A program made the translations under genes and the position numbers. A model generated the notes under the pieces. It was not told the DNA's origin. It did no database searches and worked only from the letters and a program-made list of their open reading frames with translations. DNA of 44,743 nt, taken from positions 1-44,743 of the forward strand of contig PS015021.1 of NCBI GenBank assembly GCA_048213135.1, read 5' to 3'. Shown here piece after piece: positions 939 to 44,261 of the stretch. Numbering within the stretch: the first letter of the stretch is position 1; each line of letters opens with the position of its first letter. The DNA is from Reclinomonas americana ATCC 50394. Taxonomy: Eukaryota.

Positions 939-1248
939 ATGTCGTTGAACGTGGGCGATGTCGTCGGGTTGAATGCCCCGAGGTGCGATCACTCACACAC
1001 ACTCTCTCACTGACTCCGTTCTCTCTCTCTTTGACTCTCATTGTGTGTGTATGTGTGTGGTGTGTGCAGTGTGACGTTTGGTTTGGGATGGGATCTGGTC
1101 GGTGACTCGATGGCAGTTGAGTGAGAGAGAGAGAGAAGAGAGTGTGTGTGTTGTGTGTGTGTGTGCGTGTGTGAGAGAGAGTGTGTGTGTGAGTGCGTCA
1201 TGATTCAGTTTCTTATGAGTGCATTTGCAGGATTTCGACGGATCTTGC

Positions 1249-1284
<36 letters not shown>

Positions 1285-23114: not shown

Positions 23115-23832
23115 CCATTCGAAAAAATCAACACGCCATGGAGCAGAGCTCTGGTTCGCCGCCTTCTTACGCTTTCTCCTTGTCTCTACTAGACACATAG
23201 AACCACCGTGCGCAAAAGAGATAGACTCAGAACGTATGGAGGGTGTCCGATGGCCGGCCATTTGCCTCCCACTCACTCTTTCTCTCTCACTCACTCTGTC
23301 TCTCACTCATTCTGTGTGTGTGTGTGTGCACATGCACTGCACTTGCACTCTCCCACTGCGTGTGCGTGTGCAACTGCATCTCACGCGCCCGATATGTTTG
23401 ATATGTCACTCACACGTGCCTTGTCTGACTCTTTCACGCGCACGACACTCTCTCTCTCTCTGTGCGCGAAAGAGACACACACGCACACGAGCAGAGTGTG
23501 TGAGAGAGAAAGCGAGAGAGAAAAGAGCAAATGAGTGAGAGAGGCGCGCGTGTAAATTGACACTCGGGCGCTCTCTCGCTCTCACGTACACGCACACACG
23601 CGCACACGCGCACAACCATGCTCTCTCACACGCACGCGCACACACAGCGAGAGAGAGACACACACACATTGACACGAGAAACCGTTGATTGTTGACACTC
23701 ATCACTCACTCATCAATACACACACGCGCACACGCAGAGCTCTTCCCCGTTCACCGGCTTCCGCTGCGAAGACGGCAGTGGACGTTGAACCCACTCACCG
23801 GCAACGATAACGGCGGGAATGAGTCACCAGCC

Positions 23833-26800
23833 ATGATGATGCGACCGGCGTCTGTGATGACCATGCAAGAGATTGGGAGTGTCGCTGCGCCTCCACCGCC
23901 TCTGCAGCCGTCGTCGTCAATGTTTGGGAGAGGAGCTGTTGGTGGCTCGATTGGTGTATTGGCGGCACCGTCTGCGCCGCATGGGCATAGCACAACGCGT
24001 CCGTCGTCGACCATGTCGCATCGGCCGTTTGAGAGACCGCATGTGACGACGCTGCCGTTTGCGCATTTGCCGCAGAATGGACCGCCGCCGGATGCGTCGT
24101 CGGTGAGCTGCGAGTGGGGAAGAGGAAAGGGGGGGAGGGGAAGAGGGGAAGGAGAATGAGAGGGAGATAGTGACTGCTGGTGGTGGATTCGTCTGTGTGT
24201 GTGTGTGTGTGTGTGTCTCTCTCTCTCTCTCTCTCTCTCTGTCTGTCTGTCTCTGTCTCTCTCTGTCTCTCTCTCTCTCTCTCTTTCTTTCTCTCGTCAG
24301 GAGGAGCTGGAGAGCGTCTAGAGACATTGAGGGTCGAAATGCCTGCTTTACTCTGCCCTGCGTTCTCCATCCGGAAGGCACTCTCGTTCTCCCCTTCGTG
24401 GTTCCGAGTTCTGCTCGTTCTCCTTCATCTTTTAGAGCACACTCTGGCATCGCTCGGTGAAGGTGTACAAGGCATGCGGTGGCTGGGCGGTCGATCTCGC
24501 CTGCCACACCGGTGGCAACATCTTTATCCTGTCGGCCGTCGCGCCCTCAGATCTGTCAATGAGATGCATGGGCGAGGTCACTCTTTTGCTGCATTGTGTG
24601 TTTCCGAGTCTCCACTCGGTTGTCCTACATCCTGTTTCTCGCGCGAGAGAAGTACGTGAGAATGCACAATGGCAAGTCTGCGTGTTTCCGATCTGTCGCT
24701 CATTTCCAGGCTCTTCTCGTGTTATGGAGATCAGCCGTTCTCTTCTTCCTCCGATTCTCGGATGTAGATACTCGTTTTCTTCACGTCTGTTCCGGGTTGT
24801 ATTACGCATGTGACACGTGAGCCCGCTGTGTGCACCTTCTTGCACACATGTCAATCCCTCTCCATTTGAAATCTCCTTTCCCTCGCTGAATAATTTCGAT
24901 CTTTTTCTCCCTGCCCTTTATTTGCTTACCCCCTTTCCCCTTGCAGAGCGTCATGGGCTACAACGCCGACCTCCCTCCCCTCCCTGGCGTCCTTCGCCCC
25001 AATGGCGGTGTCGGCACTCACCACATGTTGGAGGACGTGGACTACGACGCCGGTGTGGTCAGCGAGGTGCCGACTCACGGCGATGCGTCGACCATGTCGA
25101 GACGCACGGTGGTGACGCCGCTGGAGAGGAGACTCGGCGGCCCGTTTACGCGTCCCACCAATGCCGGTGTGCACGCTCTGGCACGTCGCAATGCGGCCAA
25201 TGCACACAATCTGGCCACTGACATTGGCGCACCCGGGTGGCCGCCACATGCGCGTGCCATTAGCGCGCTGGGCACGCGGGCCGACGACACGTTTGAGGAC
25301 AGTGCGTTTGGGTCGCCGACGCCGCGCGAACGCATGCATTTGCGTCGTGCAGTGGAGGACGGCCGGACCGCGTCGCCGCTGCCCGCCGTCACGCACAACG
25401 GCAACAACACTTCGATGCACGTGAGCAGCGACAGCGGAGTGAGTGCCGCGCTCAACAACAACGAGGCCGGCAGCCCCATGTCCATGGCCTTGGTGCCTCT
25501 CTCGCCGCCACAGCACCAGCACCAGCNNNNNNNNNNNNNNNNNNNNNNNNNNNNNNNNNNNNNNNNNNNNNNNNNNNNNNNNNNNNNNNNNNNNNNNNNN
25601 NNNNNNNNNNNNNNNNNNNNNNNNNNNNNNNNNNNNNNNNNNNNNNNNNNNNNNNNNNNNNNNNACCAGCACCAGCAGCACTCGCCAGGTGGCCCGCCGC
25701 CACAACCCCCGCCACTCCCACCACTGCCGCACCTGCTGCTGGGCGGCGGCAACTCGCCATCGAACGGCCCGCAGCTCATTCCACAGGCACCGTCGCCGCT
25801 GCATCGTGACCCGAGTGGCGACGGGTCGGGTGTGGTGCTGCAGTCGTCGGGCGCGGTGGCTCCACTCGGCACTGTGAACTCACAGCCGTCCCGATCGCTC
25901 TCCAAGACGAAGAGTCGCTTCGCCAAGGCGTTCTCCAACGCCTGTGGCCGCAATGTGTGGAACCGGCGCACAACCTTGTGGATTGTGGCCGGTTTCCACG
26001 TTGTATTGTTCTATTTGATAGCGGGCATGGTATTCAAGCTTTCGCCCCTTGTATTCTCCAAGAGCACCAACCTCGGTACCACGACTGTCACTCGTGAGTA
26101 GGGGGTTGCGGGAGGTAGTCTCTCTTGTTTTCTTCGATGTCGCCTCATTCATTTTGTGTTGTGCGCAGAGTTGTCGGGGTCCACTATTATTGCCACCACC
26201 ACGGTCACGGCGCCGTCGGTGAATGTGCAGTCCAACACCACTGACGCCGAGCTGGCCATGCTGTCGTCAAGAACGGCTCGGTTGACATTAGCCGGTGGCT
26301 CGTCGGCGGCGGGCTTTGCCTTGTCCACTGACGACTCGCGACATCTCTCACTGGAGCGCGACGGCGAACAGTTGCTGCTGTTTATGCCGAGTGTGGACAG
26401 TCTCAATCGCCGACGGTTTGCTCCCCGCGTGTGTTTTTGCCACTCCACTGTGGATTGTATCTGACGGGGTTGTCCCCCTGCAGATTGTTCCAAACGAGCG
26501 AGAATCGCACCATGGTCCGCATCGTACCGACCACGGTGCAATTTGGCGACAGCTCTGTCGCTGACGTGTCGCTGACTCGCGTGTCGTCCATCGCCTCTGG
26601 CGGTCTCACCACAATCTCCGGACAGAGTAGCGTTGCGTGTGGGCGGTGCTGCTTATTTATATGCTGAGATGTACTGATTGTTGTGGATCGGCGCAGTCCA
26701 CGGCCGTGGGCGGCCACTCTGTTCTCACTGGCGGCAGTGGCATCACTGGAGGCGATGCTCGTGTCATCGGCGGCGGCGGATCCGGCAGTTGCGTGTTACC

Positions 26801-27313
26801 TATTCCTCTTCTATGCTCCCTCCGCCAATGCATTATCCTGTCTCTTAACCTTCTCTCTTCACCAGCTTCCATTGGCGGCAATGTTCTGCTGCATGCTGGC
26901 AATGCGGCGTCGACGGTGCAAGCGGGCATTGTACAGGCCTACGGTCGAGCGTTCCAGATCCGACCGGCAGGCACCGGTGCCGACACGGCGTCGGGCGAGT
27001 TGCAGATCGGCATTCGCGCCGACATGTCCAAGTACTTTGCGATTCGCGCCTCGGACGAGAAGCTGTCGTTTGTGAATCAGCAGGGCAACACCATCTTCTC
27101 GTTCCCCGCCACCGGCTCCTTCACCTTTGACAACTCGGTCAGCTTCGGCAACGAGATTTTGGTGTCGGCCACCGACAATGATGCGCACTTTACGGCGCGC
27201 ACCACGCTGGCCAGTTGCGTTGATCGAAAATCCGGGCTCTCTTGTGTGTCACTTTCGCTGGATCTTTCCTTACCACTTTCCTCACCACTTTCCTCTCCGT
27301 CGCATTTCTTCGC

Positions 27314-27348
<35 letters not shown>

Positions 27349-27944
27349 ACTCGACGACCGACACGACGAGAGAACGAGGGGAAGTAGGNNNNNNNNNNNN
27401 NNNNNNNNNNNNNNNNNNNNNNNNNNNNNNNNNNNNNNNNNNNNNNNNNNNNNNNNNNNNNNNNNNNNNNNNNNNNNNNNNNNNNNNNNNNNNNNNNNNN
27501 NNNNNNNNNNNNNNNNNNNNNNNNNNNNNNNNNNNNNNNNNNNNNNNNNNNNNNNNNNNNNNNNNNNNNNNNNNNNNNNNNNNNNNNNNNNNNNNNNNNN
27601 NNNNNNNNNNNNNNNNNNNNNNNNNNNNNNNNNNNNNNNNNNNNNNNNNNNNNNNNNNNNNNNNNNNNNNNNNNNNNNNNNNNNNNNNNNNNNNNNNNNN
27701 NNNNNNNNNNNNNNNNNNNNNNNNNNNNNNNNNNNNNNNNNNNNNNNNNNNNNNNNNNNNNNNNNNNNNNNNNNNNNNNNNNNNNNNNNNNNNNNNNNNN
27801 NNNNNNNNNNNNNNNNNNNNNNNNNNNNNNGTCCGCCGACCACCGCGTCGCGTACGTCGTTCGGTCGTACGTACGTAACGTAACCGTCGTCTCTTGTGTG
27901 TCTCTTCTCTCGTCGTCGTCGTCGTCGTCGTCTCTCTCTCGTCT

Positions 27945-28003
<59 letters not shown>

Positions 28004-31000
28004 CTTTCTCTTTTTTTTCTCACATCTCTCTCCCTGTGGCGTTGTGCAGCCGCATCATCTCGCCTGGACCTGTCCGTCACAACGCACACGGCCACACTCA
28101 ATCTTAGCTCAAGCATTGGTCGCCTGCAACTGGCCACCAATGATTTGCCGATTGAGATTGCCGCCGGCAGCTCCACGGTCAAGGTACAGTGTGTTGCTTT
28201 CCCTCGCACATCGGGCCTGTCAGCTGTTCTCACCTACTCGCCGCGCGTAGATCTTGTCGCCGGTGGAGTTGACGACCATCAACACACCGTCGTCGAACAC
28301 GGTGTCGCCGCTGAGTCTATCGCCGACTTCCAATATAATATCTGTCGGTAGTTCGTCAGCCGACCTCACCATCAAGCGTCCCGACCGGATCGACAATGTC
28401 ACCGGCTCGCTGACTCGAATTGTGGGCCAGCAATCCAACGGAACCACGGGCGGCGCAGTGTGCGTGCTTCTTTCTTTTGGTTCCCCCACATATCCATTCC
28501 ATCCCTCATATTTCTTTCGTATTCTTGCAGTCGCATTGAGGGTGGTTCGGGATCGGTTACCCGCGGCGCTGTGCAGATCGCCACCGCCAACCCGGGACCC
28601 GTGGTCATTGGAACCACTGGTGGCTCTCTGCAGGTGGACAGTCCGACTGTGTTCTCGCAGGCCGTGACGCTGGGTGGCTCGGTCTCCTTTAGCTCCCAGC
28701 TGGATCTGGGCAGTGGTCAGTTGTTCGCCTCGGCCGCAAGTGCGCTGGTTCTTGGCAGCACCACGCAGGTTTAACGCAATGCTCCCGTGTCCGATGCGCC
28801 CCCAAATGCTGCGTTGCCTGACTCCCGTGCGCAATGTGTGTGTGTATGTGCAGAGTCTGTTTGTCATTCGGCGACCGGACCAGACGAGTACTGCGGGCCT
28901 GGATCTGCAGATCCGTGCAGGCCGCGGCTCCACTCCTGGTGCCGTCACCGTCGGCAGCACCACCGACACCTCCAATGTCACCGTCACCTCGGCGTCGAGC
29001 ACGACCATTGACTCGGTGGCCACACTCACCATTGGCGCCACGGCGACCACAGTGACAGTTGGTCGAGCGAGCGGCACTGTCGCCGTACAGGGATCGCTCT
29101 CTGCCGCCGTCTCGGTCATCTCGCCGCTGATCACCACCGCCAACAGCTCGCTGGCGTTGCAGGCCGGTAATAATCGACTGGAACTCGGCACTCCCACCGC
29201 CGCCTTCACCGTGACACGACCGGTGTACACGGGCACTGGTGTGGCGTCTGGCCTCACTCTGGCTGGTCAGGACTTTTCGACAGGAACCGGCGGCAGTCTG
29301 TTGCGTGCGCAGAGATGAGGGGATAGAAGAGGGCGTACTATTGCTCATGCTCTAACGTTGATGTGCCTCCCTTCCTGACCCCCGCTCTCTTCTGTCCGCG
29401 CTGATCACATCCTCCTCAGCGATATCAATGGCGGCGCGGGAACAACGAACGGCACTGTGTACATTGGCCGCTCGACGACCTCCAGCTTGCAACTTAGCGC
29501 ACCCACCGTGGCCGCCGCCGCCTTTACTGCGCAATCGACGGCCAACTTTTCTGGTGACGTCAACGTTGCTGGTCCCACGTCTCGCGTCTTGGCGTTCGGA
29601 AACGTGTTGCAGGTTGGCGGCACTGATTCGACGACGTTCACCATTACGAGGCCGTCGACTGTGGGCACGGATGCCGTGGCCGGCAGCATTCGCATTTCGG
29701 CGGGCATTGGAACCGGCGTCAACGCCGTCTCCGGCTCGGTGATTATCGGCTCCAACACCACCGCCACGGTGTCGCTTACCGGCGTCAACGTATCGCTGTC
29801 GCCAACCAGCGTGCTGTCGCTGGGCACTGGCGGTACCACCGCGAGCATCCTGCTCGGCCACGCTCTCACACCCGTCACTGTGCAGGGAGCGGTATGTGTG
29901 CTCATCTTTGTCCTGTTGACTTGTGGTATCCCTCGCCTCACTGTTGTGTGTGTGCTTGCCTCGCGCAGTTCACCGCCTCATCGACATTTAGCGTAAATGG
30001 AGATTTGCTGCTGAGTGGAGCCGTACGGTCGCCATCCACCGATCTGTTCTTGCGCTCGTCCACTCGTCGCGTGCAATTGGGAGCATCGTCGGAAATCGGC
30101 GACTACATTCTCTCGCGCCCTGCTCTGTCGTCGGGTGCCGGCAACGACATTCGCCTGCTGGGTCAGGATACAACGGCGGGCTTTACTGCCGGTTCTGTGT
30201 TGCGTAATCGCTGGCCTTCTCCTCTTCGTCCTCCCCCCACTTGCCTCACTTTTTCGCTCCTCGCAGCTACGTGGATGCGGGTGCGGGCTCGGGTTCTGCG
30301 GGCAACGTGTACATTGCCACGACCACGGCGGCTGCCGTGCGCATCGGTCGCGCCACTGGTGGCACCTTCCTCGATTCGTCCACGGTGACGTTCAGTGGCG
30401 ACCTTGCTCTGTCGTCCTCGTCGCGTTTCCTGGCTGCTGGGGCGGCCACTGCGGTTTTCTTTGGCCCCACGGACAGCTCCGAATTCCAGCTGGCGCGTCC
30501 GACGCGCACCACACCGAACGCCACGGGCGGCGACTTGCGCATCCAGGGCGGTCTCGGTACAGGCTCTGGTCTTGCCGGCAAGGTGCATGTCGGTGGCGCC
30601 AGCAAGGCCTCCCCGCAGGTGAACATTGAGGCGCAGGCCATTACGGTGGACAGCGGTTCCACACTCGGTTTGCTGGGCACCAATGTCAACATTGGCTCCT
30701 CAACATCCACTGTGACCATTAACGGAATTGTTGAGTGGCTCCCCCCTCCGCCTCTCCGTGTCATTCTTGGCTCGCAGTCACTGACCTGTATCATTATTGT
30801 TGTTCATGTGTGCAGTTGAATGTGGTGAATGGCCTGCAGTTCAGCGGCACACAGCTGGTGGCCAACACGATTGTGTCGGTGTCGCCGTCCAACAACCTGA
30901 CTCTGCGGCCGACGAGCAATATTCTCGTACTCGGTGGCGATGCGGGAATCGTCATTGGCCGCCCACAAAACTCTGGCGCCAGCGGCACTACCACGCAGTA

Positions 31001-34000
31001 CCAGGGACAGCAGGGCACCGGTTCACTGGCCGGAGGCGATATCCTCTTCGACGCTGGCGCCGGCCCCTCAGTTCCTCTGGAAGGCTACGTGCTCATTGGC
31101 ACGCAGGCCGGCCGTGAGGTGTGGATTGGCAAGTCGGCGAGCAGCCGTGTGCTGGTGCAGTCGGCGGCGCTTGAGCTGTCTGGTGTGCTGCGAGTGGCCT
31201 CCACGCAGTCCATCACGACCTCGCCCACCGGTGCCACCATGACGCTCCCGTTCGGCGAGCCCGACAACTCCACTTTCCGACTGCAGCGTCGCACGGCGGG
31301 TTTGGCGGCTGCCGGCTCCATGGCTGTGGTGAGTGGGCGAGCGACACACATACCACAAGCAACACCCAAGCTCCCTCGCATCTCTCTCACACACTTTATC
31401 TCGCCACTTGCAGCTTGGCGCACAGAGCACGGGTGCCACTGGTGGTAATCTGCTGGTCGCTGGCGGCGACGGCATCACCACTGGCGGTTCGTTGACATTG
31501 CGTGGCGGTGCCGACACTACCGGCAACTACACTGGTGGCGTCACAATCGGCACCGTGGACACGACTCCACTCGCCGTGCAGTCGCGTGTGCTCACCATGG
31601 ATTCCGTGACGTCAATGGCCATTGGCGGCTCATCCACCGGCGCCGTTACCATCGGCAACGCCTCGAACTCGCTCACTGTTGGCTCTGTGGTGCGTGGGCG
31701 CGTACTCTTATCTGTATAAGAAGAAGAAAAATGACACTCACCTCACTGTGTTTTTTGCTTGGACAGGCGACGTTTTCGCGCGCCGTGACCATGAACAATG
31801 CACTGACCGTTACTGGCGCCGTCAGCATGAGCTCCACGCTGGCGGTGACTGGTTTGCTCGATGCTACGGGCGGCGTGCGTACCGGGTCGGTGGTGTCGCA
31901 GGCTGGCGACGTGACCATCCGTCCCGCCAGCAACATTGTCACTCTTGGTGGCTCCACGGCTTTCACGCTGACGCGACCCGGTCAAACGGCCGCTGCGACT
32001 TCTGGCACCGATTGGTTCATCACTGGGCAGTCGGCCGTCGACGGCAACGGTGGCAATGTGTTGCGTACCTGTTCCCACACCACGTTTCGTTCTTTCTCGC
32101 TGTGTGTTGCTTACGGAATGCATTCGTTCCTCGCAGCATCATTGATGGCGGGTCGGCGAGTCTCACAGCGGGTCAGACACGACTCGGCACAGTGCGCGGC
32201 GATGTGGTGATTGGGCGCGCCGGCAGTGCCCTGACAGTGTCGGCGGCCACCACCACTGTCACCAATGCGCTGGTGGTTGGCACATTGTCGACGACAACCA
32301 CCGCCTCCATCGGCACCGACTTGACGGTTGTCGGCTCGGTTCTGTCGCCCGCGCAGACACTGACTTTTGGCGACACGACCACGGCGGCGTTTACCATTAA
32401 GCGGCGCGATCGAGTTGGAACCGGCTCTGATCTGTTGATCGAGGCCGGCCAGAACACAACGGGCGGCACTGACGGCAATGTCGTCATTGGTGCGGCGACG
32501 TACCGCACCAATCGTGTGACTGCGCAAGCCAAGTCAGTGGTTCTGGACTCGAGCGGCACGATTTCGGTCACTGCGTCGGGCGGCAATGTCAGCGTGCAGT
32601 CCACCGGCGCCAACGCATTTGAGGTGCAGCTGGGCACCTCGGGCAAGATCACGCGAGTCATGGGCGATGTTGCGTTGGCTGTGTCATCTCTCTCCTTGTT
32701 TTCAATTTGCTCATGGCGCGCACCTCAGTTCTACGTCATGGGCACCGCCAACTTCGGCTCCTCGCTTCTGCTGCTGAACACACTCTCGGCCACGACGCTG
32801 ACTGCCCTCACGCTGGCGTCGCCAACGGGCCAACCGCTGAACATTCAGCCCGACACGAGCGTGATCAATCTGACTGGCGCAGCCGGTGTCAGCTACGTCG
32901 TTCAGCGCACGGCACGTGCGACAGGTTCCGGTGATGCGCTGCGCTTCTTTGGACAGAGCACGGCCGAAATCAACCGCAGTGGCGGCGATGTGTGAGTAGT
33001 TGAGAGAGAGGGAGGAGACGTGTGAAAGGGGATTCTTTGGTGGCTGACGTCCTGTTTTTTCTCTGTTCACCCCATAGGTATATCGACGCTGGTTCGCCGG
33101 GAGGTGGCACCGGAACAGAGGGCAACATCTTTGTCGGCACTTCGGCGTCGCGTACGGTGAGTCATGCACGGTCTCTCTCGTAGTCACAGTGCGCTCCATT
33201 TCCGTAGTTTCCTGACGTCCCGTTTCCCACAGATTACGGTTGGCAAGGCCGCCACAGCTGCCCTCTTCTTGACCGCCGTGCAGACCAATGTCACCGGCCC
33301 ACTCAACGCGCAGTCCACGTTGACGGTGCGCGGAACCCATGTCTATCTATGTGTGTGGGGACAAAGTTGCTGATTACCAGTGCCTGCAGGTCACGGGCAC
33401 CACGCTGCACAATGGCGCCACCACTTTTGCGGCTCCGCTGACGGCTGCGACCGACACTTTGGAGTTGCAGGGCACGCCAAGCGCTTCGACATCGTTGTTG
33501 ATTCTGCGCACCGTTGATCGCGCACTCGCCAGGTGCGTCAGAGTATGTGGAGTCCCTTGTGCGGAAGAGAGGAATCATCGTTCTCATCGAAACGACGAAC
33601 ACAGTGCGGCCATGAATCTGCGCGTGGCACCGGGAACCGGCACTGGCAGCACGCTGTTCCTCGGTGCGACCTCCAAGCAGACAACTCTCGTGCAGGTCGA
33701 AGGCACCACCGTGTCGCTGGTTTCGGCCAGTGTCACGATTGATGGCACCAACATTGGCATTGGCACCGTGGACACGACACTGACCTCGATTCAGATGGCT
33801 CGCGCCGGCAAGCCCACCAATGTGCTTGGCTCGGTGAGTAGCCGCAAACTCACTGTCTCCTCCTGCCTGTTAAGTCCTCTTGCCCGCTGCTCACTCATCA
33901 CACTTGCCATGGGCGCAGCTGACCGTGGCCGAGACGGCGACAGTGACCACGGAAGTGGTGACGCCGCAGCTCCGGAGTGCCTCGGCCAACCTCAACATCA

Positions 34001-37000
34001 GTTCGACCAACAACAGCGTGGTGTTTATCGGCACCTCCCCGTCGCCGTACACCATTTCGCCGGTGACGGTGGCTGGTACCACGCAGTCGCTGGTTCTCGC
34101 CGGTCAGCCTTCGACCGGCGGCACTGGTGGTGGAGTGTTGCGTGCCTGCCTTGTTTTGATCGTTCATCGTCTCTCCTTGTCCTGCTGTCGCTCATGGTTT
34201 GTCAATGCGTGAACAGGGAGATTCGAGGCGGCGCAGGCAACCCGACCGGCGGCACTGTGACCATTGGCTCCACGCCGACCTCCAACATCGCAGTCGGCAA
34301 CGCCTCAGCCGCAATCGCCATTACTGCCACAACCGCCAATATGACGGGCGTGTTGCAGCTGGTCGGCTCCTCCTCGTCGCTCGTCAGCTCAGACAACATT
34401 CTGCGTCTGGGCAAGCAGTCGACCGATTTGATTGTGCGCCATGCCTCGGTGTGGACTGGCCCCGGCACGCCCCCAGTCATTACGTTCTTGTCGGCGCAAC
34501 ACGACAATGGCGCGGGAACAGTGACCGGAGGTGCCATGGTGATTTCGACGGGTTCTGGAGCGCGCGGCGCTGTTGCGTTTACTTGGCGATTCTCTGCTGC
34601 GTTTTCTTCTTGCATCTCTGTGTGTCCTGACTCGCACCCCCCACAGTTGACTCTGCAAGCCGCCGCGACTACCGTCAACAGCAGCTCTACAATTGCCATC
34701 ACCAGTACCACGACCACGACAATCACCGCCACTACGGCACTGTCGCTGATCGGCACTGCGTCTGCCGCCATTGATTCCACTACGGGAGTTGCGTCCAGCG
34801 ATCGGAGACTCTCTCCTCATTTATCCTTTCTGTGTGTGAACCTCACTTCTTCGTGCCACTTAATCAGGCTGTCGACATTGGCTCACTCTCCACCGCCGTC
34901 AACATTGGCGGCCCCATGGCCACCACCACCACCATTCGCAACCTGTTCCTCGGTCAGCTGGCATCTCGTTTTGCCAGCACGCTGCAAGTGGACCTGGAGG
35001 CCACACTGACTGGCGGAGCGCGCACCACGGTTGTGCGCTCTGCCACCACGCTGCTGCTGTCTGTCGGCAACGCACTGACCATTGATCCCGGCATTGCTGT
35101 CGGCTCGGTAGAGGCGCGCATCTCACTCGGCAACAACGGCGCCTCGCTGCCCTTTATCATGGAACGAGTGGCGCAACCGTCGGGTGCCACCAGTGGCTCC
35201 GACACGTACCTCCGCGGCCAGTCGACCGCCGGTTCCACTGGCGGGCGGCTGCTGCTTGATGCTGGCACGGGAGGCACCACTGCTGGCGACATTTGGATTG
35301 GTGGCAACACCGTGAATCAGGTGCGCATCGGCACAACTACGTCGAGTACGCTGGTCCAGTCGGCGCTGTCGACGTTCTCTGGCAATGTCGATTTCCAGTC
35401 GGCGAAGATTCTGAGTTTCCGCGGCGCCTCGGCCACGGCCGTACTGCATGACGACATGAGTGTCGGCTTGACGATTCAGCGGCCAGATCGCACCACCATT
35501 GCGCCGGGCGCCAGCATGTCAATTCGTGCCGGCGCTGGTCTCGGTGGCAGCACTCCTGGTTCACTCTTCCTGGGCCACCTGACGCTCAATCAGGACGCCA
35601 CTCTGCGTGCATCCAACTCTGTGGACATCAACACCAATGGCTCGCTGACACTCGGCACGTCGGCCACTGGCACCATCAACATTGGCGACCCAGCGTCTAC
35701 GTCCACCCTCGGTCTGCTCAAACTGAGCGCGGCCACGCTGCAGATTCTGATTGGCACGCTCGGCGGCGCTGGCTCCACGACGTTTGTGACGCCGAGTCTC
35801 GCTCTGACGACCAACACGTCGTCGATTACCACCTCGGTGTTGACGCTTGCCGCCTCCACGTCCATGACTGCAACGGGTGGCGCGTACTCGTTCTCTGCCG
35901 TGTCGTCGTTCTCCGCCACTCCCACCGGTGCCATGACGCTCGGCACCACGACCTCACCCACGTTTACGATGCGTGGTGTTGTGCTGGACGCTGCTTTCGG
36001 CACGTCGTCGACCCTGGCGGCGCCGACGATGACCTTTGGCACGAGCGGCTCGATCACCACCACCTCCATCACGATGAATATGAGCACGCTGTTGTCGGTG
36101 AGCACGCAGACGCTGACGGTCAGCGCGCCGACTGCCGTGTCGTTTGGCGCGTCGTTGACGCCGGTCGCCACCATGAGTGCCTTCTCGACCGCCTACAGCG
36201 TCACCAGTGGCAACTCGGCCTCGTTCCTTGTCGGCACGGGCGTCAACCAGCTGGGTTTCACCATGACTGCTGGCGCGCCGGGTGCCATTCGTCTGTATCG
36301 CGGCACGTCGCCCACATGCGAGATGAACCTCAACAACGACCCGAGTTTCCCCATGTCGCTGGCGTGCACCGCCATTGACGTGTACGGTTCGTCGGCAGTA
36401 CGCATGGACGGTACCAGTATCAACATTGGTCGTCGTGTGGACGGTCTCGGCAATTCGCTCACCTCCAACATTTATGTTGGCAACTCGGGCGCCCTCACCA
36501 TCACCCTCGATGCTGGCCAGCTGACACTCACCTCGCGCAACGTCGGCGCCACCAACACGTTCACGTTGCCGATTTGGTCGGTGGTGTCCAACTCGGCGAC
36601 CATCGCTGCGAGCACTTCGTACACGTTGACCACGTGAGTGTTCTCCATCTCTCCCCCTTTCTGTTGTCCCCCGTATCTGACTGTGCATTGTCACGCAGCG
36701 GCGCCATGAGCGTTACGTCCACGTCGTCGACCATCACGTCGCCGACATGGACACTGACTGCCAGCACTGCGGTCAACATGGGTGTGGCGTCGTCCACGGA
36801 TTTCACGTTCCTCGGCAAGTCGTTTGTCGCCACTGTGCAAGTTTCGTACATGTTCCCCTGCGTGCTGGGTGCTGCTGCTGTTCGCCGTTTCTCACACGCA
36901 CGTCGCAGAACCAAGTGCAAATGACGGGTGCCACGTTTGCTTTCGGCACCACCGCGGCCACCACCTCCATCAGTCTTACTACGGCCGCCTCCACGGTGGC

Positions 37001-40000
37001 GAATTCCATTACGCTGACCTCGTACAACCTGACCGGCTACGCTCTCAACACGTGGACCATCAGCGGCGACGCGTCGACGCAAGCGCGCGTCCTCAATGTG
37101 AATGCCAAGAGCATTCTGGTCAAGTCGCTGGACGATGCGGGCTCCGGAACTGCGTCCATCACCTTCCAGCACGGCTCGTCGGTTGCACCCGCCGTGTTCA
37201 CCATGACCACGAATCGCATTCTGCTCAACAACGGACCCAACGACGTGATTTTCGACATGGATTCGCGCGCAGCCACTCGCTACATGCGCCTCACGGCCGC
37301 CAATGTCGTGATTGACTCGACCGCCACGGGTGGCACGGTCAATATGGACGCCGCGGTTTCTATCTCGATTGGCACGTCCACGCTCTCCTCCATCATCATT
37401 GGTCAACCGGCGCCGACGCTGGCCATCTCCGGCAGTCAGCTCACCATGACCATGTCGAATAGTGCGCTGGTGAACACGCTGACGTTGCCGAATCTGGCCA
37501 TCAACGCCACCACCGGCATCAGCATTCAGTCTGGTCCCTTCTTGCTGAACCTCAACGGTGGCGCCGCCGTCGGCTCCTTTACTGGTTTCCGCTACAATTT
37601 CACGCCGTCGGAGCTGCTGTTGCAGTCGACCTCGGTGCTGACGCTCGGCGTGGCCACCACGGCCATTACGGAGCGTGGTGCCTCGATTGACTCGCGCATC
37701 TTTGGCACGGTGACCATGGAGGCCGCCACATTCATCATTGGCTACGTGCGTACCCACTTTCTATAATTACTTGTCTTTGCGTGTGTTCTCATTTCTCTGC
37801 AAACAGACGTCGACGGCGGCACCGACGGTGGATCCACCGACGACCCGCATCACGCTGCAGACAGTGGTGGCAACCAACAACTTTATTCAGCTGGATTCGG
37901 CCGGTCTGCGCCTGTTCTCGCGTGACGTGGTCACCGTGTCCACCAATGTCGGAGGTGAAATCGACACCATCGATGTGCTCGGTCGCAGTATCAGCGTCAC
38001 CTCGTCCGGTGCCTCCAGTGGCACCATCTCGCTGGCCATTGCTTCCGGTGCCGCCAGCGCCATTACGAGCAAGGCCGTGTTTGGCGCCTCGTACGGCCTG
38101 CTGTCGGCGACGTCGGGCAGCGGCACCACGCAGCTAGATCTGGGGTTCACCACTCTCGGCCGCGCCGCGCTCACCGCCCCCATCTTTGTGGTCGGTGCCA
38201 GTGGCACGACGCAGGGCTTTATCGACGCGACGGCGTTGCAGATTGGCGCCACTTCGGGTGTCACGCAAGCCATTACTCTCGGCACGGCCACGGTCGGCAC
38301 TGTCAATGGGCCGTCGGTGGGCATTCTCGGCAAGACGATTGCCATTGCGGCTGACCTGACACCGGGCACCAATGGTGCACCGAGTCTCTCGCTGCGCGGT
38401 GACTACACGACGCTCACGTCGCTCGCGTACGACGTGGTGGCCACGAACACGTTCACACTGGCGACGTTGCGTGCGCGATGATGATAGTCGTAGCAGTGGA
38501 GAAAGAAGGTTTTTTTTGTTCGCGATGCTCACTTGTTTTTTCCCGCACGCAGTGGAGTGGCCACGGTGACGGGCACGACGCACACTCACACACCTGTGAA
38601 TCTCACACTCGGTAACGAGGCCGGTTTCCTCACACTGGGCGCCTACACGGCCACTGGTACCACCATTATCGTGAACGGACGGCAGCAGACATCGAATCTG
38701 CGCGGTCCGTACGTGCTGCAGGCTACGGTTGCGTCAAAAATACTAGTTCTTCACGGACTTGTAGAAACGCCTGTTGCTAAACTCCCTCTCTCCGTCTTTT
38801 GCAGCAATTCACTCTGAACAAGGGCGACGGTACCACTGTCATGGATGTGCAGGTCTCTGGCGGCTCGACGATTTACACGTCCACTGGCGACCAGTATCGC
38901 GTGCGAGCGACGGCGTTGTTTGATGTGTCGGCCGACGGCACCAATCCGGTGACCACGGCCTCCATCACGAGTGCCACCACCTTGTTGTACTCGACGACCC
39001 TCGTGGACATGCGGTCGCGCCAGAACGGCACCAATTATGCGCAACTGACGTTGGCCACACTGAATGACCAGGCCTCGCTGAGCCGCTTCAGCAGCACCGG
39101 CAGCAACGGAAACATCAGTGTGACGCTGGGCGCCGTCGGCACCACCACCATCAAGAACTCGCTGACCATGATTTCGCCCGAGGTGGCGATCAGTGCGTCG
39201 TCGCGTGTGGGTGTGACTGTGGCCGGCAATCAGCTGCTGCTGATGACCTCCACCGGCGCGGCGAGCACCTTTACCATTGGCGACGGCACCACCACCTCGC
39301 TGCAATTTGCCGTGGTCAACACGTCAGTGTTGGGACCGATCAGCTTTGCCGGCAGTGTGTCGATTGCCACGCCGGGCACGCTCTCGGTGGCAAGTGGAGC
39401 AACGACGCTTGGCGGCACGTTGGCGGTGACCGGCGCCACCACCCTCTCGTCGACCCTGGCCGTCACTGGCAACTCGAGCTTGACGGGCACGCTGGGTGTG
39501 ACGGGAGCCACGACATTGAACAACTCGCTGGCCGTCACAGGCGCCACCACTCTCAACAGCACGCTGAGTGTGGCTGGACTGGCGACATTTGCCGGCGGTG
39601 TGACGCTGCCCGCAACGGCGGCCTTCACCATCAATGGTGGTCCCGCGTCGCTCGGCAGCACGCTGGATGTGGCAGGCGTGGCCACGTTCAACAACAATGT
39701 GTCAGTCACTGGCGCTCGCACGCTGACAGTCGGCACCGGCAGTACCACTCTCGGCGGCGGTGTCACCGTCACAGGCTTGTCGCTGTTCACCGGCAATGTC
39801 ACGGTGACGGGCACCAACTCGCTGGAGGTGACTGGTGGCAATACCACCCTTGGCGGCATGCTGTCGGTGGCTGCGGCCACGTCGCTCGGATCGACGCTCA
39901 CGGTGACCGGTGTGAGCACGTTTAACAATGATGTGAGTTAGTGGTGCGATGGGGTGGGGAGAGAAGGGGCAAGGGGTGGTTGGGGTAGGCAAGGCACTTC

Positions 40001-43000
40001 TGTCGCATGATTCTCACGGTTTTTTTGTTTTGTCGTTCTCCCCCTCTCCAGGTCTCCATCACTGCGGCGCGCACCTTTACCACCGGCACAGGTCGCACGC
40101 TGATCAATGGCGCACTCACTGTGACGGGCATCTCCACATTCAATGGAGACGTTTTGCTGAACACGACCAATCTCACCCTGTCGTCGGGCAACGCGACGGT
40201 GGGCGGCAATTTGGCGGTGACCGGCACGTCGACTCTCACGGGCGACATTACGGGTGGAGCCAAGTTGACGGTGGCGAGCGATGTGCGGGTGACAACCGGT
40301 ACGCTGACGGTCGCCGCCGGCGCTGTTTCCTTTGGCAACACCATGGCTGTCACGGGTGCGACGACGCTGTCGAGCACGCTGGATGTGACGGGTGGATCGA
40401 CGTTGCGCAGCTCGGTCAACATTGTCGGCGCCACCAGCAACCTCACCGTCGGCAACGACACCACCGTCTCTGGCGCCCTCAGTGTCACCGGCATCACCAA
40501 GCTGAATGGTGCAGTGACGGTCAACGGTGCCACGCTGGTGAACAACAACATGACGTTCTCGGGTGCTTTCGGCATCTCCACCGGCACCGGCAGTGTCTCG
40601 ATTGGCGGCAACCTGACCGTGAGCGGGCTCTCCAACTTGAACGGCGGCCTGAATGTGGCGGGCGGCGGCGGACTGTCCATCACGGGAGCGCTGTCGGTCA
40701 GTGGTGCGGCGACCTTTAGCGGCGCCACCACCATGGCGCAGCCGTTGACGGTGAACAACAACGTGACCGTCAGCAGCCCGAACACGCTGACGATCGGCAC
40801 CGGCGCTGGAGGTAGTCTCGTGGTGAACGGCACCAGCAGTCTGACGGGCAATGCCACTCTTGGCGGCACGCTGAGCGTTACCGGTGCAACGACGTTGAGC
40901 AGCACGCTGGCGGTGACGGGAAACACCACAGTCAGCGGCACATTTTCGGTGGCCGGTACCTCCACCACCAAGGCCATCAACATGGTGGGTGCGAATCTGT
41001 CGCTCGACACGGGTAACGTGTCGATCGGCGGCACTCTGTCGGTGGGCGGCACGTCGACGTTCACCGGCAATGTCGCCGGTTCGGGAACGCTGACTGTCAC
41101 TGGCAACACGCAAGTGAGCACCGGCTCGCTGTCGGTGGTGTCTGGAATCGTGCAGTTTGGCTCGACACTGTCAGTGGCCGGCGCTTCCACGTTCTCCAGC
41201 ACCATTGATGTGACGGGGACGTCGTCGCTGCGCAGCTCGGTCAGCATCATCGGAGGCACCAGTAACCTGTCGGTGGGCGGCAACTTGACTGTCGGCGGCA
41301 CGTTCAATCTCACTGGCGCCGCCACGTTTAGTGGCGCACTGAGCACCGGCAACCTGTCGGTGGTGGGCACCCTGGCGGTGTCCGCTGTGAGTACTTTTAA
41401 CGGCAATGTGAGCCTCGTGGGCACGAGTCTCAATCTGGACACGGGCAACATTCGCGCCGGTGGCACACTGAGCATTGGCGGTGCGTCGACCTTTGCCGCG
41501 GTGTCCGCCAGTGGCAACACGTCTGTCGGCGGCACGTTGGCGGTGACGGGTGCTACGACCATGAGCAGCACGCTGTCGGTGGCCGGCGCCTCCACCTTCT
41601 CCAGCTCCATTGACGTCACCGGCACGTCGTCCCTGCGCAGTACCGTGAGCATCATTGGTGCCACCAGCAACTTGGCAGTCGGCGGCAATCTGACCGTGAG
41701 CGGCACCTCCAACATTACTGGCGCCGCCTCGTTTGGCGGCTCACTGACCACCGTAGGCAACGTGTCGGTGGGTGGCACGCTGGTGGTGACTGGTGTGAGC
41801 ACTTTTAACGGCAATGTGAGCCTCGTGGGCACGAGTCTCAATCTGGACACGGGCAACATTCGCGCCGGCGGCACACTGAGTATTGGTGGCGCGTCGACGT
41901 TTGCTGGCGTGGCCGCCAGCGGCAACATGACGGTGGGTGGTTCGTTGGCGGTAACCGGTGCCACCACCATGAGCAGCACGCTTTCTGTTGGCGCCGCCTC
42001 GACCTTCTCCAGCAGCATCGATGTGACGGGCTCGTCGACGCTGCGCAGCTCGGTGAGTGTGCTGGGTGCGGCGAGCAACTTGTCAGTGGGCGGCAACACC
42101 ACCCTCACTGGCACGCTCGGCGTCACCGGTGCGAGCACCATTGGCGCACTGACGGTGAATGGCGCCACGCTGATGAACAACTCGATGGTGTTTGCCAACA
42201 CATTCGGCATCTCCACCGGCACTGGCGGCAACGTGTCCATTGGTGGTAACTTGACGGTGGCGGGCACGGCGCAGGTCACTGGAGGACTCTCGATCTCCAG
42301 CTTCACCGTGTCGGGTGCCACCAGCTTCACCGGTGCTGTGACCTTGACGCAGCCGCTTTCCGTCTCCGCCGATGTGACGGTGACCGGTGCCACCAGCACA
42401 CTGACGGTCGGCAGTACGAGCGCGCTCTCCGTCAATGGTGTCGCCACGTTTACGAATACGGCCAATCTGAATGGAGCCGTCAGTCTCGGCAGCACGCTGA
42501 CAGTGACGGGCATTAGTACTCTGAACGGCGCCACCACCATCAACAACACGCTGAGTGTCGGCAACACAGCCACACTCAGCGGCGCTGTCAACGCCTTGAG
42601 TACGCTGGCGGTGACGAGCACGGCCACGCTCAACGGTGCCACCACCATCAACAACACGCTGACAGTGAGTGGCACGACCACGCTGAACGGCGCTCTCAAC
42701 GCCACCAACGCGGTAACGGCGAATTCTCTGACGGTCACCAATGCCGCCAATCTCAACGGTGCCGTCACGGCCGCCACCACATTCACGGTGACTGGTGTGG
42801 CGACGCTGAACGGTGCCACCACGGTGAACAACACGCTGACAGTAGGCAACACGGTCACGCTGAACGGCGCAGTAACGGCGAATTCACTGACGGTCACCAA
42901 CGCCGCCAATCTCAACGGCGCCGTCACCGCCGCCACCACGGTCACGGTCACGGGTGTGGCGACACTGAACGGCGCCACGTCGGTGAACAACTCACTGGCG

Positions 43001-44261
43001 GTGAGCGGCACGGCCAACTTGAACGGTGCCGTCAACATTGGCAGCACGCTGACGGTGAATGCGGCGGCGACCTTTAATCAAAATGTGGTCATTGCCTCGC
43101 CGCGAACGCTGACGGTGAGCGGTGTGACGACGGTGGCGGCCGATTTGTCAGTCACCAGTGGAAATCTGCTGGTCACCGCCGGCAATTTGCGCATCACTCC
43201 GAGCGGCGGCGCCGACAATGGCCAGATTTGGCTCAAGTACAACGCCAACAGCATCGCCACGCCGGCGCCGGGTGTTGGCTGGACGGCGATGTTCTTCCAG
43301 AGGAACAGCGGAACAGAAAAGGTGAGAGGGATGCTGGGAGAAGAGTGGAAGGGGGAAGGGGGAAGAGGAGGGGCCGAAAAATAACAGATGGGCAGGACAA
43401 AGGGAAGGGAAGGGAAAGAAGTAGGGATAGGAAGGAATGGGACGGGAAATCAAGAGGAGAAACAGGGAAGAGGGAAGGAGGGTGGGGTGATGGAGAAGGA
43501 AAGGAGGAGGAAGAGTGAGGGACGAGAAAGAAAAAGAACAGATGGGAAGGAAAGACTAGGAAACGAAGAGGTAAAAGGGATGGAGGGAATTTGAAAGACA
43601 TGGTAGGTGAAGACAAGGGAGAGAAAGCGAATGTTGTTTGCTTCACAGAGACAAAAAGAGACGGAGTTTTGTGTGCACTGAATCATTTTCTGGTTTCTGT
43701 TGTGTTCTCACTCTTTTGCCTTTGCTTTGTGACTTGCAGTTGCACTTTGTCAACTCGAGTGGCACGCTGATGTTCTACGACACGCCATCGACGTCCGACG
43801 GTCGCTTCAAGACGGACCTGCAGCAGTTGGGCGTGCGAGTGACGGACCGACTGCGCTCGGTGCACTCGTACAAGTTCAAGTGGGCGGAGAACGCGGCCGA
43901 CCTTGGCATCACGCCGGGTGCGCCCGAGTACGGCCTGATTGCGCAGCACTTGGAGGATGCGTTCCCGGAGCTGTCGGACACCAACGGCGTGGTGACGTAT
44001 TCGGTGGACGGCAAGAAGCGTCCGTTCCGCATGATCCGCACGCAGGCGGTGGCGTCGCTGCTGATTGATGCGGTGAACGAGCACACGGAGGAGCTGGAGG
44101 TGGAGAGGAAGGCGCGCGAGGAGGAGAGGAAGGAGCGCGTTCGTCTCGAGGCGCGGGTACAGGAGCAGGAGGCTCGACTGCGGCAACAGGAGAGCATGTT
44201 GGAGTTGCTCATGTCGCGTCTGCAGGCGCTGGAGCAGCAGCTGCAGGCGCGAGTGGAGTAA
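23833..44261 (+). CDS. Giant (~5,300 aa, 33 exons) type II membrane protein: Pro-rich cytoplasmic N-terminus, one TM helix, very long Gly/Thr/Ser/Val beta-repeat fibre, C-terminal Peptidase_S74-like intramolecular chaperone and coiled coil
   Basis: 32 GT-AG introns join all + strand ORF pieces in phase from ATG 23833 to TAA 44261. TM segment LWIVAGFHVVLFYLIAGMVF at ~25975-26035. LxVTGATTLxxTLxV repeats at 39350-43200. Last exon (43740-44261) has SDGRFK..YKFKW..YGLIAQ..FPEL and then a heptad coil. The length includes an estimated N gap in exon 2. Confidence 0.85.
24457..24540 (+). pseudogene. Inverted duplicate fragment of the neighbouring lectin exon, inside intron 1 of the giant gene
   Basis: Encodes VKVYKACGGWAVDLACHTGGNIFILSAV versus VKIYEACGGWAVDLDCRTGGNIFILSAV on the minus strand at ~22917-23000. 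Confidence 0.75.
25511..25680 (+). repeat. Coding (CAGCAC)n Gln-His microsatellite spanning a gap
   Basis: CAGCACCAGCACCAGC precedes and ACCAGCACCAGCAGCAC follows the N run at 25527-25664. Confidence 0.75.

Follow-up and report, generated by a model that had tools for sequence, protein, structure and literature searches.

The stretch of Reclinomonas americana ATCC 50394 DNA analyzed here (contig PS015021.1 of assembly GCA_048213135.1, positions 1 to 44,743 of the forward strand; in the following, the window means this whole stretch of 44,743 nucleotides) is draft eukaryotic sequence with a GC content of about 45–62% and eight N runs. Two kinds of 5' splice site can be deduced from its genes, ordinary donors such as GTGAGT and GTGCGT and donors carrying one additional T after the initial GT (extra-T donors), most of which read GTTGCGT. 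The latter occur on either strand, in five or more unrelated genes, and their status as an abundant class of real donors, as well as the way in which they may be recognized, is the subject of this study.

A giant gene at 25733-44261 (+) comprises at least ~4,900 codons and 31 or more short introns and encodes irregular beta-helix rungs (with a bactofilin-like Pfam match) and, at the C-terminus, a Peptidase_S74 chaperone domain. Nearest to it are metagenomic 'beta strand repeat' proteins, at about 30–35% identity. Thirty of its introns were modelled, 17 with ordinary donors (GTGAGT, GTGCGT and others) and 13 with extra-T donors, while one more is interrupted by an N gap. At 10960-13965 (+), three calcyphosin-like EF-hand units follow each other in tandem as a single frame chain, the links between them being GTTGCGT introns (11755 and 13074). 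The closest relatives of such a unit contain 3–7 units, and the named best ones are multi-unit stramenopile proteins sharing 33–47% identity (Triparma, Chrysophaeum, Pelagophyceae, Aphanomyces, Hondaea, and Saprolegnia). A further gene at 18459-20583 (+) encodes a UPF0020-type RNA/DNA methyltransferase domain (DPCCGSGT and NLPYG motifs) fused N-terminal to a seven-blade WD40 propeller; a metagenome scan and a homologue search with the methyltransferase as query gave no close relative. Likewise, only generic matches were obtained with the WD40 part, and the search with an exon of the giant gene gave no close relative either. A lysine methyltransferase and a TPR protein are also encoded. Rfam families and tRNA genes were searched for in the window and none was found, hence no U1, U6 or U5 gene was seen there.

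The heptamer GTTGCGT occurs 21 times in the window, 19 times on the plus and twice on the minus strand, versus 8.3 ± 2.8 expected from 100 dinucleotide shuffles, none of which reached this count (largest value 16). The strand bias matches the genes, most of which lie on the plus strand as well. All 18 GTTGCGT coordinates assigned to donors in the original prediction are among these matches, and its seven variant sites were found exactly where they had been placed (GTTGAGT at 1116 and 30730, GTTGAGG at 11170, GTTTCGT at 18580 and 36841, GTTGCGC at 7033 on the minus strand and GTTTCGT at 9606 on the minus strand). Accordingly, 18 of the 25 sites bear the identical heptamer, and all heptamers fit GTT[G/T][C/A]G[T/C/G]. 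As to other GTTGCGT copies, the one at 11621 (+) was rejected as a donor for lying inside an ordinary GTGCGT intron (11586-11653), removal of which links ...RVTYEEFE with DYYAEVSA..., the one at 10184 (−) was rejected for having no intron-like sequence downstream, and the one at 24 (−) reaches past the window edge.

Introns were located by a dynamic-programming exon chain which scores codon usage and accepts any GT as donor and AG as acceptor, the donor motif not being given (flat-donor model). Without an acceptor term, 24 introns were obtained after the N gap of the giant gene, among them seven with GTTGCGT and one with GTTGAGT, plus the intron at 26632 before the gap. A refined model, in which the intron penalty was lowered and an acceptor matrix covering positions −25 to −3 was added, gave 29 introns between 25.6 and 44.4 kb, 11 of them starting with GTTGCGT and one with GTTGAGT. 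Hence, 11 of the 12 GTTGCGT copies in this gene were chosen among 29 donors from 1,272 GT sites (hypergeometric p = 1e-18), and the twelfth, at 27214, enters the N gap. The combination of G at +6 and T at +7 is found in 12 of 14 model-chosen GTT donors versus 12 of 226 non-donor GTT sites (p = 4e-14), so that, within the window, the enrichment on which the original prediction had staked its claim is present.

For three model donors, an in-frame consensus donor close by was preferred on visual inspection (28460 with acceptor 28530 in place of 28458, 33834 in place of 33855, and 36841 in place of 36835). In the first case, the flat-donor chain had chosen GTGTGCGT together with a weak GAG acceptor (28458-28540), and the in-frame pair of GTGCGT (28460) and TTGCAG (28530) seems the better choice, from which it follows that a few model junctions are misplaced by some bases. 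Removing the 25 introns of the curated set results in a single open reading frame (ORF) of 4,436 codons from 28064 to a stop at 43384, with 214 and 55 stops in the remaining two frames of the spliced gene, and removing the four introns before the N gap gives a stop-free ORF of 398 codons. The Peptidase_S74 exon follows after one more ordinary intron, 43322-43739. Two additional approaches within the giant gene were abandoned, the beta-helix repeats as a junction check due to varying rung lengths and k-mer over-representation because it was swamped by coding repeats.

Of the 25 extra-T sites, 15 are flat-donor picks (26632, 26788, 29300, 30199, 30730, 32060, 32669, 34137, 34572, 34788, 38466, 38728, 11170, 18774, and 7033 on the minus strand), two were found by manual reading (18580 and 3665), and two join EF-hand units in frame (11755 and 13074). 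The sites at 1116, 4068, 9606 (−) and 13901 are only plausible as donors. Individually, the sites are as follows.

1116-1122 (+): GTTGAGT candidate donor, followed by a GA/GT microsatellite and two possible CAG acceptors
3665-3736 (+): GTTGCGT intron of 72 nt in phase 1, the exons of its gene being tiny; spliced reading ...FVVTIYTM[N]RTFREVKTAYARFVD, conserved-looking
4068-4074 (+): GTTGCGT candidate donor, with purine-rich sequence and a ~170-bp tandem duplication downstream
6960-7033 (−): GTTGCGC intron of 74 nt in the TPR gene; flat-donor model under both codon models (the second is described below)
9600-9606 (−): GTTTCGT candidate donor, a sequence match
11170-11242 (+): GTTGAGG intron of 73 nt, phase 1; EF-hand loop restored, flat-donor model
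11755-11833 (+): GTTGCGT intron of 79 nt between calcyphosin-like units 1 and 2; in frame in phase 2, read-through hits a stop, alternative acceptor at 11797
13074-13162 (+): GTTGCGT intron between units 2 and 3; acceptor at 13132 or 13162, either in frame
13901-13965 (+): GTTGCGT candidate intron of 65 nt, frame-compatible
18580-18639 (+): GTTTCGT intron of 60 nt, phase 1, in the methyltransferase-WD40 gene; motif restored, manual reading
18774-18830 (+): GTTGCGT intron of 57 nt, phase 0; flat-donor model, in-frame TAG at the intron end
26632-26696 (+): GTTGCGT intron of 65 nt; flat-donor model, in the 398-codon 5' ORF
26788-26865 (+): GTTGCGT intron of 78 nt; flat-donor model and curated ORF
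27214-27220 (+): GTTGCGT candidate donor; the intron enters the N gap at 27389-27830
29300-29419 (+): GTTGCGT intron of 120 nt; flat-donor model and ORF, sole GT donor fitting both frames
30199-30266 (+): GTTGCGT intron of 68 nt; flat-donor model, frame test and ORF
30730-30815 (+): GTTGAGT intron of 86 nt; flat-donor model and ORF
32060-32136 (+): GTTGCGT intron of 77 nt; flat-donor model and ORF
32669-32728 (+): GTTGCGT intron of 60 nt, in frame and stop-free; found only at lower intron penalty (6 and 3), coding score favours removal
34137-34216 (+): GTTGCGT intron of 80 nt; flat-donor model and ORF
34572-34646 (+): GTTGCGT intron of 75 nt; flat-donor model and ORF
34788-34867 (+): GTTGCGT intron of 80 nt; flat-donor model and ORF, sole GT donor fitting both frames
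36841-36908 (+): GTTTCGT intron of 68 nt, ambiguous; the model chose 36835 (GTGCAAG), 6 nt upstream, both in frame
38466-38552 (+): GTTGCGT intron of 87 nt; refined model and ORF, the model without acceptor term having chosen 38471-38557
38728-38804 (+): GTTGCGT intron of 77 nt; flat-donor model and ORF, sole site with G at exon position −1

Two junctions could be checked at the level of single residues, both at variant heptamers and none at an exact GTTGCGT site. Splicing of 11170-11242 gives AFD[T]SGDGLISMEEF, a 12-residue EF-hand loop that aligns without gaps to FFDVNHDGRISYDEF and CFDTNGDRELSYDEF, its paralogues from units 2 and 3, which are not interrupted by an intron. Splicing of 18580-18639 gives VWD[P]CCGSGTLLLEAL, which we take to be the S-adenosylmethionine-binding motif of the UPF0020-type methyltransferase family. 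The three exons flanking this site match Pfam UPF0020 collinearly at profile positions 2-22, 37-57 and 73-136, although the individual matches are weak (E = 0.054, 0.036, and 6e-5, respectively). At 18774, the in-frame TAG at the intron end implies that the intron must be removed, and the intron at 3665 is missing from the automated frame test because another intron lies directly upstream. The length of each intron modulo 3 is fixed by the ORF, and a one-base slide of both ends would result in non-GT and non-AG termini. Taken together, the extra-T sites are well supported as real donors forming an abundant class, and the predicted introns behind them have the features of genuine U2-type GT-AG introns.

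For comparing the two classes, the 17 ordinary and 13 extra-T introns of the giant gene were used. In most respects they are indistinguishable. The median length is 76 nt for ordinary and 77 nt for extra-T introns (Mann-Whitney p = 0.92), intron phases are alike, a CTNAY motif is present 14–36 nt from the 3' end in 15 of 17 ordinary and 10 of 13 extra-T introns (25/30 overall), and all 13 extra-T introns start with GT and end with CAG, an acceptor also used by 15 of the 17 ordinary ones. Accordingly, nothing in these predicted introns indicates a separate spliceosome for the extra-T class. U12-type introns, to which the extra-T introns bear a likeness as a second class with its own strict donor motif, were rejected because their characteristic RTATCCTT-type donor is absent here and because branch and acceptor signals are as in the ordinary introns.

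The differences are confined to the donor and its exon border. G at exon position −1 is found in 11 of 17 ordinary versus 1 of 13 extra-T introns (p = 0.0024), bearing out the earlier claim that most ordinary donors carry this base and the extra-T class does not. Likewise, a recount over all 25 sites gave 11 A, 10 T, 3 C and 1 G at this position, the same tally as originally reported. Measured against the codon-position background, −1G is in excess at ordinary donors (11 observed versus 5.0 expected, p = 0.003), whereas its depletion at extra-T donors is not significant (1 observed versus 3.7 expected, p = 0.13). The latter are instead enriched in −1T (7/13 observed versus 2.7 expected, p = 0.009), and A or T is present at 21 of the 25 sites. 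Moreover, the position preceding the conserved GT block strongly favours C in extra-T donors (+5, C:A = 20:3), in contrast to the balanced usage in ordinary donors (+4, C:A = 8:8; p = 0.027). No conservation was detected beyond +7. From these sites, two co-dominant 5' splice-site classes may be proposed, GT[G/T][C/A]GT and GTT[G/T][C/A]GT, the latter overwhelmingly GTTGCGT.

Pairing of these donors with U1 was evaluated by duplex energies for a canonical 11-base U1 5' end, allowing bulges and loops and ignoring pseudouridine and U1-C. The best duplex in any register has a mean energy of −6.9 kcal/mol for 19 ordinary donors versus −1.9 kcal/mol for 23 extra-T donors. In 17 of the latter, the +1G is unpaired or lies in an unrelated register, with intron position +1 being unpaired in 9 of 23, and a shifted duplex is best in only five of the 23, mostly GTTGAG variants (with the canonical U1 end, from which that of the host may differ). 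When U1 is changed by one base to the ACGUAC type of Mastigamoeba, the values become −8.1 kcal/mol for ordinary and −5.2 kcal/mol for extra-T donors, and a hypothetical U1 end ACGCAAC gives −6.9 and −9.8 kcal/mol, respectively. Of the original prediction, the abundant class with one T added to the local consensus is supported, and its lack of a −1G preference agrees with a shifted register; the analogy to human GUUAAGU donors is not supported in the form proposed, as it assumes a canonical U1, to which the sites here pair only weakly.

Aligned on their shared block, G/GUGCGU and /GUUGCGU (the slash marking the cut) differ in a single base, with the cut displaced by one position. In the mechanism proposed, cleavage would occur at the GU, leaving the conserved GCGU block one base farther from the cut than usual, and the extra-T donors would pair one base out of the usual register, their additional U being either mismatched or looped out. 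This geometry matches the human shifted and +2/+3 bulge registers, and the missing −1G preference fits the shifted form, since it is what would be predicted if +1G occupied the usual slot of −1G. The pairing partner, however, is probably not the canonical U1. Both the weak pairing with the latter in any register and the preference for C at +5, opposite to a selection by canonical U1, where A would be favoured, incline us to an offset register for which the reader would be a U1 specific to this lineage, present either as the sole U1 or as an extra paralogue. In such a U1, the conserved C would be faced by a G, and an A may have been added. For catalysis, U6 would have to accept a spacer between the cut and its GU pairing that is longer by one base, and many introns would have a distance of six from the cut to the U6-pairing G. 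This G lies five bases downstream of the cut in yeast and human, and a distance of four has been argued for the STAT3 tandem donor (PMC11162779). Hence, both there and here the distance would depart from five bases, but STAT3 stands for one human exon in which it is shorter by one base, whereas here it would be one base longer and apply to a large share of introns.

A precedent for U1 changing along with its donors is provided by the Archamoebae, where GUUUGUU donors co-occur with a U1 of AACAAAC in Entamoeba and GUGCGC donors with ACGUAC in Mastigamoeba, as described in the main text of a preprint (bioRxiv 10.1101/2022.06.08.495308). As in these organisms, the extra-T donors are atypical and hold conserved positions that canonical U1 would be unable to pair, and it is the G of the Mastigamoeba U1 that pairs with the conserved C. 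On the other hand, going by the same text, a single six- or seven-base consensus has been transformed there and is read in the normal register, whereas here two classes differing by a one-base insertion would coexist within the same genes. Overall, a variant U1 or U6 fits the predicted donors better than the analogy to canonical U1, and the favoured reading, that of genuine two-class donors with an offset register and a non-canonical, lineage-specific U1, is put forward with a confidence that stays short of even.

Several points weigh against this favoured reading. The enrichment in −1T is predicted by neither the shifted register, which calls for A, nor the bulged one, which calls for G, and stays unexplained unless the U1 partner carries an A there. 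Going by the text of the preprint cited above, most eukaryotes have a canonical U1 5' end, and these include Thecamonas and Mamiellales, which prefer C at +4 (bioRxiv 10.1101/2022.06.08.495308), so that a preference for C need not stem from U1. The donors given there for Mamiellales (GYGCGY) and Thecamonas trahens resemble the ordinary class GTGCGT found here, but an extra-T class is not mentioned for them in the text, which is the part of the preprint covered, figures and supplements excluded. The duplex energies, too, depend on an assumed U1 end and omit pseudouridine and U1-C. A second codon model (1,504 codons) recovered six GTTGCGT donors as well as 30730 and 11170 among 24 plus-strand introns but replaced several other extra-T donors by donors fitting no consensus; this model is too weak for the smaller genes. 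Finally, the samples are small, with 13 versus 17 introns from one gene that was also partly the source of the codon model, three donors of the curated set were placed by eye, and all junctions were predicted from sequence alone.

Shifted-register and bulge 5' splice sites in human were reportedly described by Roca and Krainer in 2009 and by Roca et al. in 2012, and a conceivable, somewhat less probable explanation is that canonical U1 and U6 read the extra-T sites in just such a shifted or +2/+3-bulged register, with U1-C, Luc7 or TIA-1/Nam8 offsetting the weak pairing. Beyond the agreement of the missing −1G with the shifted register, the five sites at which the shifted duplex is the best one and the canonical U1 retained in lineages preferring +4C, this explanation can draw on registers validated in human cells, where the alternative register gives shifted and +2/+3-bulge donors good pairing with canonical U1 (Tan et al., 2016, PMC4856993), and on a report of a non-canonical U6 register (PMC11162779). 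The human sites also resemble those described here in having one base inserted after GU in the consensus, cleavage at the GU and no reliance on −1G. However, all validated non-canonical human registers together account for about 1.5% of donors according to both papers (PMC4856993, PMC11162779), not for about 40%, and the extra-T donors differ further in making up 13 of 30 introns of the giant gene, in being dominated by one heptamer and in pairing poorly with canonical U1. For most GTTGCGT sites this pairing is near zero, with +1 unpaired in 9 of 23, C at +5 is preferred where A would be expected, and the exon position −1 is T-rich instead of A-rich.

An improbable alternative is a recognition independent of U1 pairing, in which a protein or U6/U5 alone would read GUUGCGU, comparable to lineages with reduced or absent U1 function. 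This would suit the weak pairing with canonical U1 and the strict conservation of the heptamer, but ordinary donors of the same genes look U1-dependent, given their −1G enrichment and good duplex energies, and, reasoning from published pairing, a canonical U6 ACAGA box would leave the conserved C unexplained too.

Less probable still is a cut 3 nt downstream at a GC donor (GTT/GCGT), or the use of both positions as a GYNGYN tandem donor, a phenomenon that has been described (PMC1779574). This is the sole systematic in-frame alternative, the GC position always being in frame with the GT donor. However, a later cut would place an exon-final GTT at all 13 sites of the giant gene and in all three phases, although GTT makes up just 0.7% of its codons and 8% of its Val codons, which argues for the GTT being intronic. 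Besides, GCGTNN is unlike the local donor consensus, and at 11170 and 18580, where the motifs fix the GT junction, positions +4 and +5 are GA and TC, not GC. On these grounds, the GC donor was rejected. An artefact of wrong gene models, or young 'introner' copies ending in GTTGCGT, is held to be just as improbable, since the predicted nature of the junctions and the short, CT-rich introns that might suggest it are countered by the 4,436-codon ORF across 25 junctions, by the spread of the sites over both strands and no fewer than five unrelated genes, by the lack of conservation beyond +7 and by a search of 39 introns stripped of their splice signals, in which the only similarities were low-complexity matches of 11–15 nt (best E = 0.019) spread over both classes (125 within the second class and 199 between classes), so that there is no shared intron sequence and the introns are not copies of a mobile element.

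A few other features were noted in the window. The intron 43322-43739 (+) of the giant gene is unusually long (418 nt) and purine-rich (GGAAGG-type), the other introns of this gene having 60–120 nt. At 2380-4070 (+), a gene with very short exons, some of ~17–32 codons, shows the pieces GLGWD... and ...HSDDERINV...FVVTIYT..., which may be TerD-like. Directly 3' of the GTTGCGT at 4068, a tandem duplication of ~170 bp at 4075-4420 (+) is composed of a purine-rich block, TTATTCCAG and a CT-rich block. Introns and spacers contain long microsatellites of the (GA)n, (GT)n and (CT)n kinds at 1123-1290, 9480-9600 and 27290-27345, several of them adjoining assembly gaps.

An extra-T donor class was not reported in the literature searched (the heptamer and its RNA spellings, atypical donors and U1, and stramenopile donors), a search outside of which lie subscription papers, figures and supplements and beyond which a genome paper may exist; matches to the heptamer were only primers, miRNAs and unrelated items. 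In summary, the observation underlying the original prediction is confirmed, while its interpretation is partly supported, in that the class and the offset geometry appear real but the reading by a canonical U1 is doubtful. What would be new is the co-dominance of offset-register donors, as rare exceptions are already known. Whether the major spliceosome of this organism routinely works in two registers, with about 40% of introns having the GCGU block one base farther from the cut and with either two U1 species or a U1 and U6 accepting a looped-out U, is a proposition that we consider evenly balanced. If true, this would be the first case of an offset-register 5' splice site being co-dominant across a genome instead of a rare exception. 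Gene finders trained on only one donor matrix would wrongly score a large fraction of the introns here. For the positions that pair with U1 and U6, the distance from the cut is regarded as all but constant, with departures known as rare human exceptions. Hence, a spacing longer by one base in a third or more of the introns would amount to a natural experiment, which would reveal how the cut site is measured, if U6 handles a bulged 5' splice site routinely, and if U1 genes diversify for serving two donor classes.

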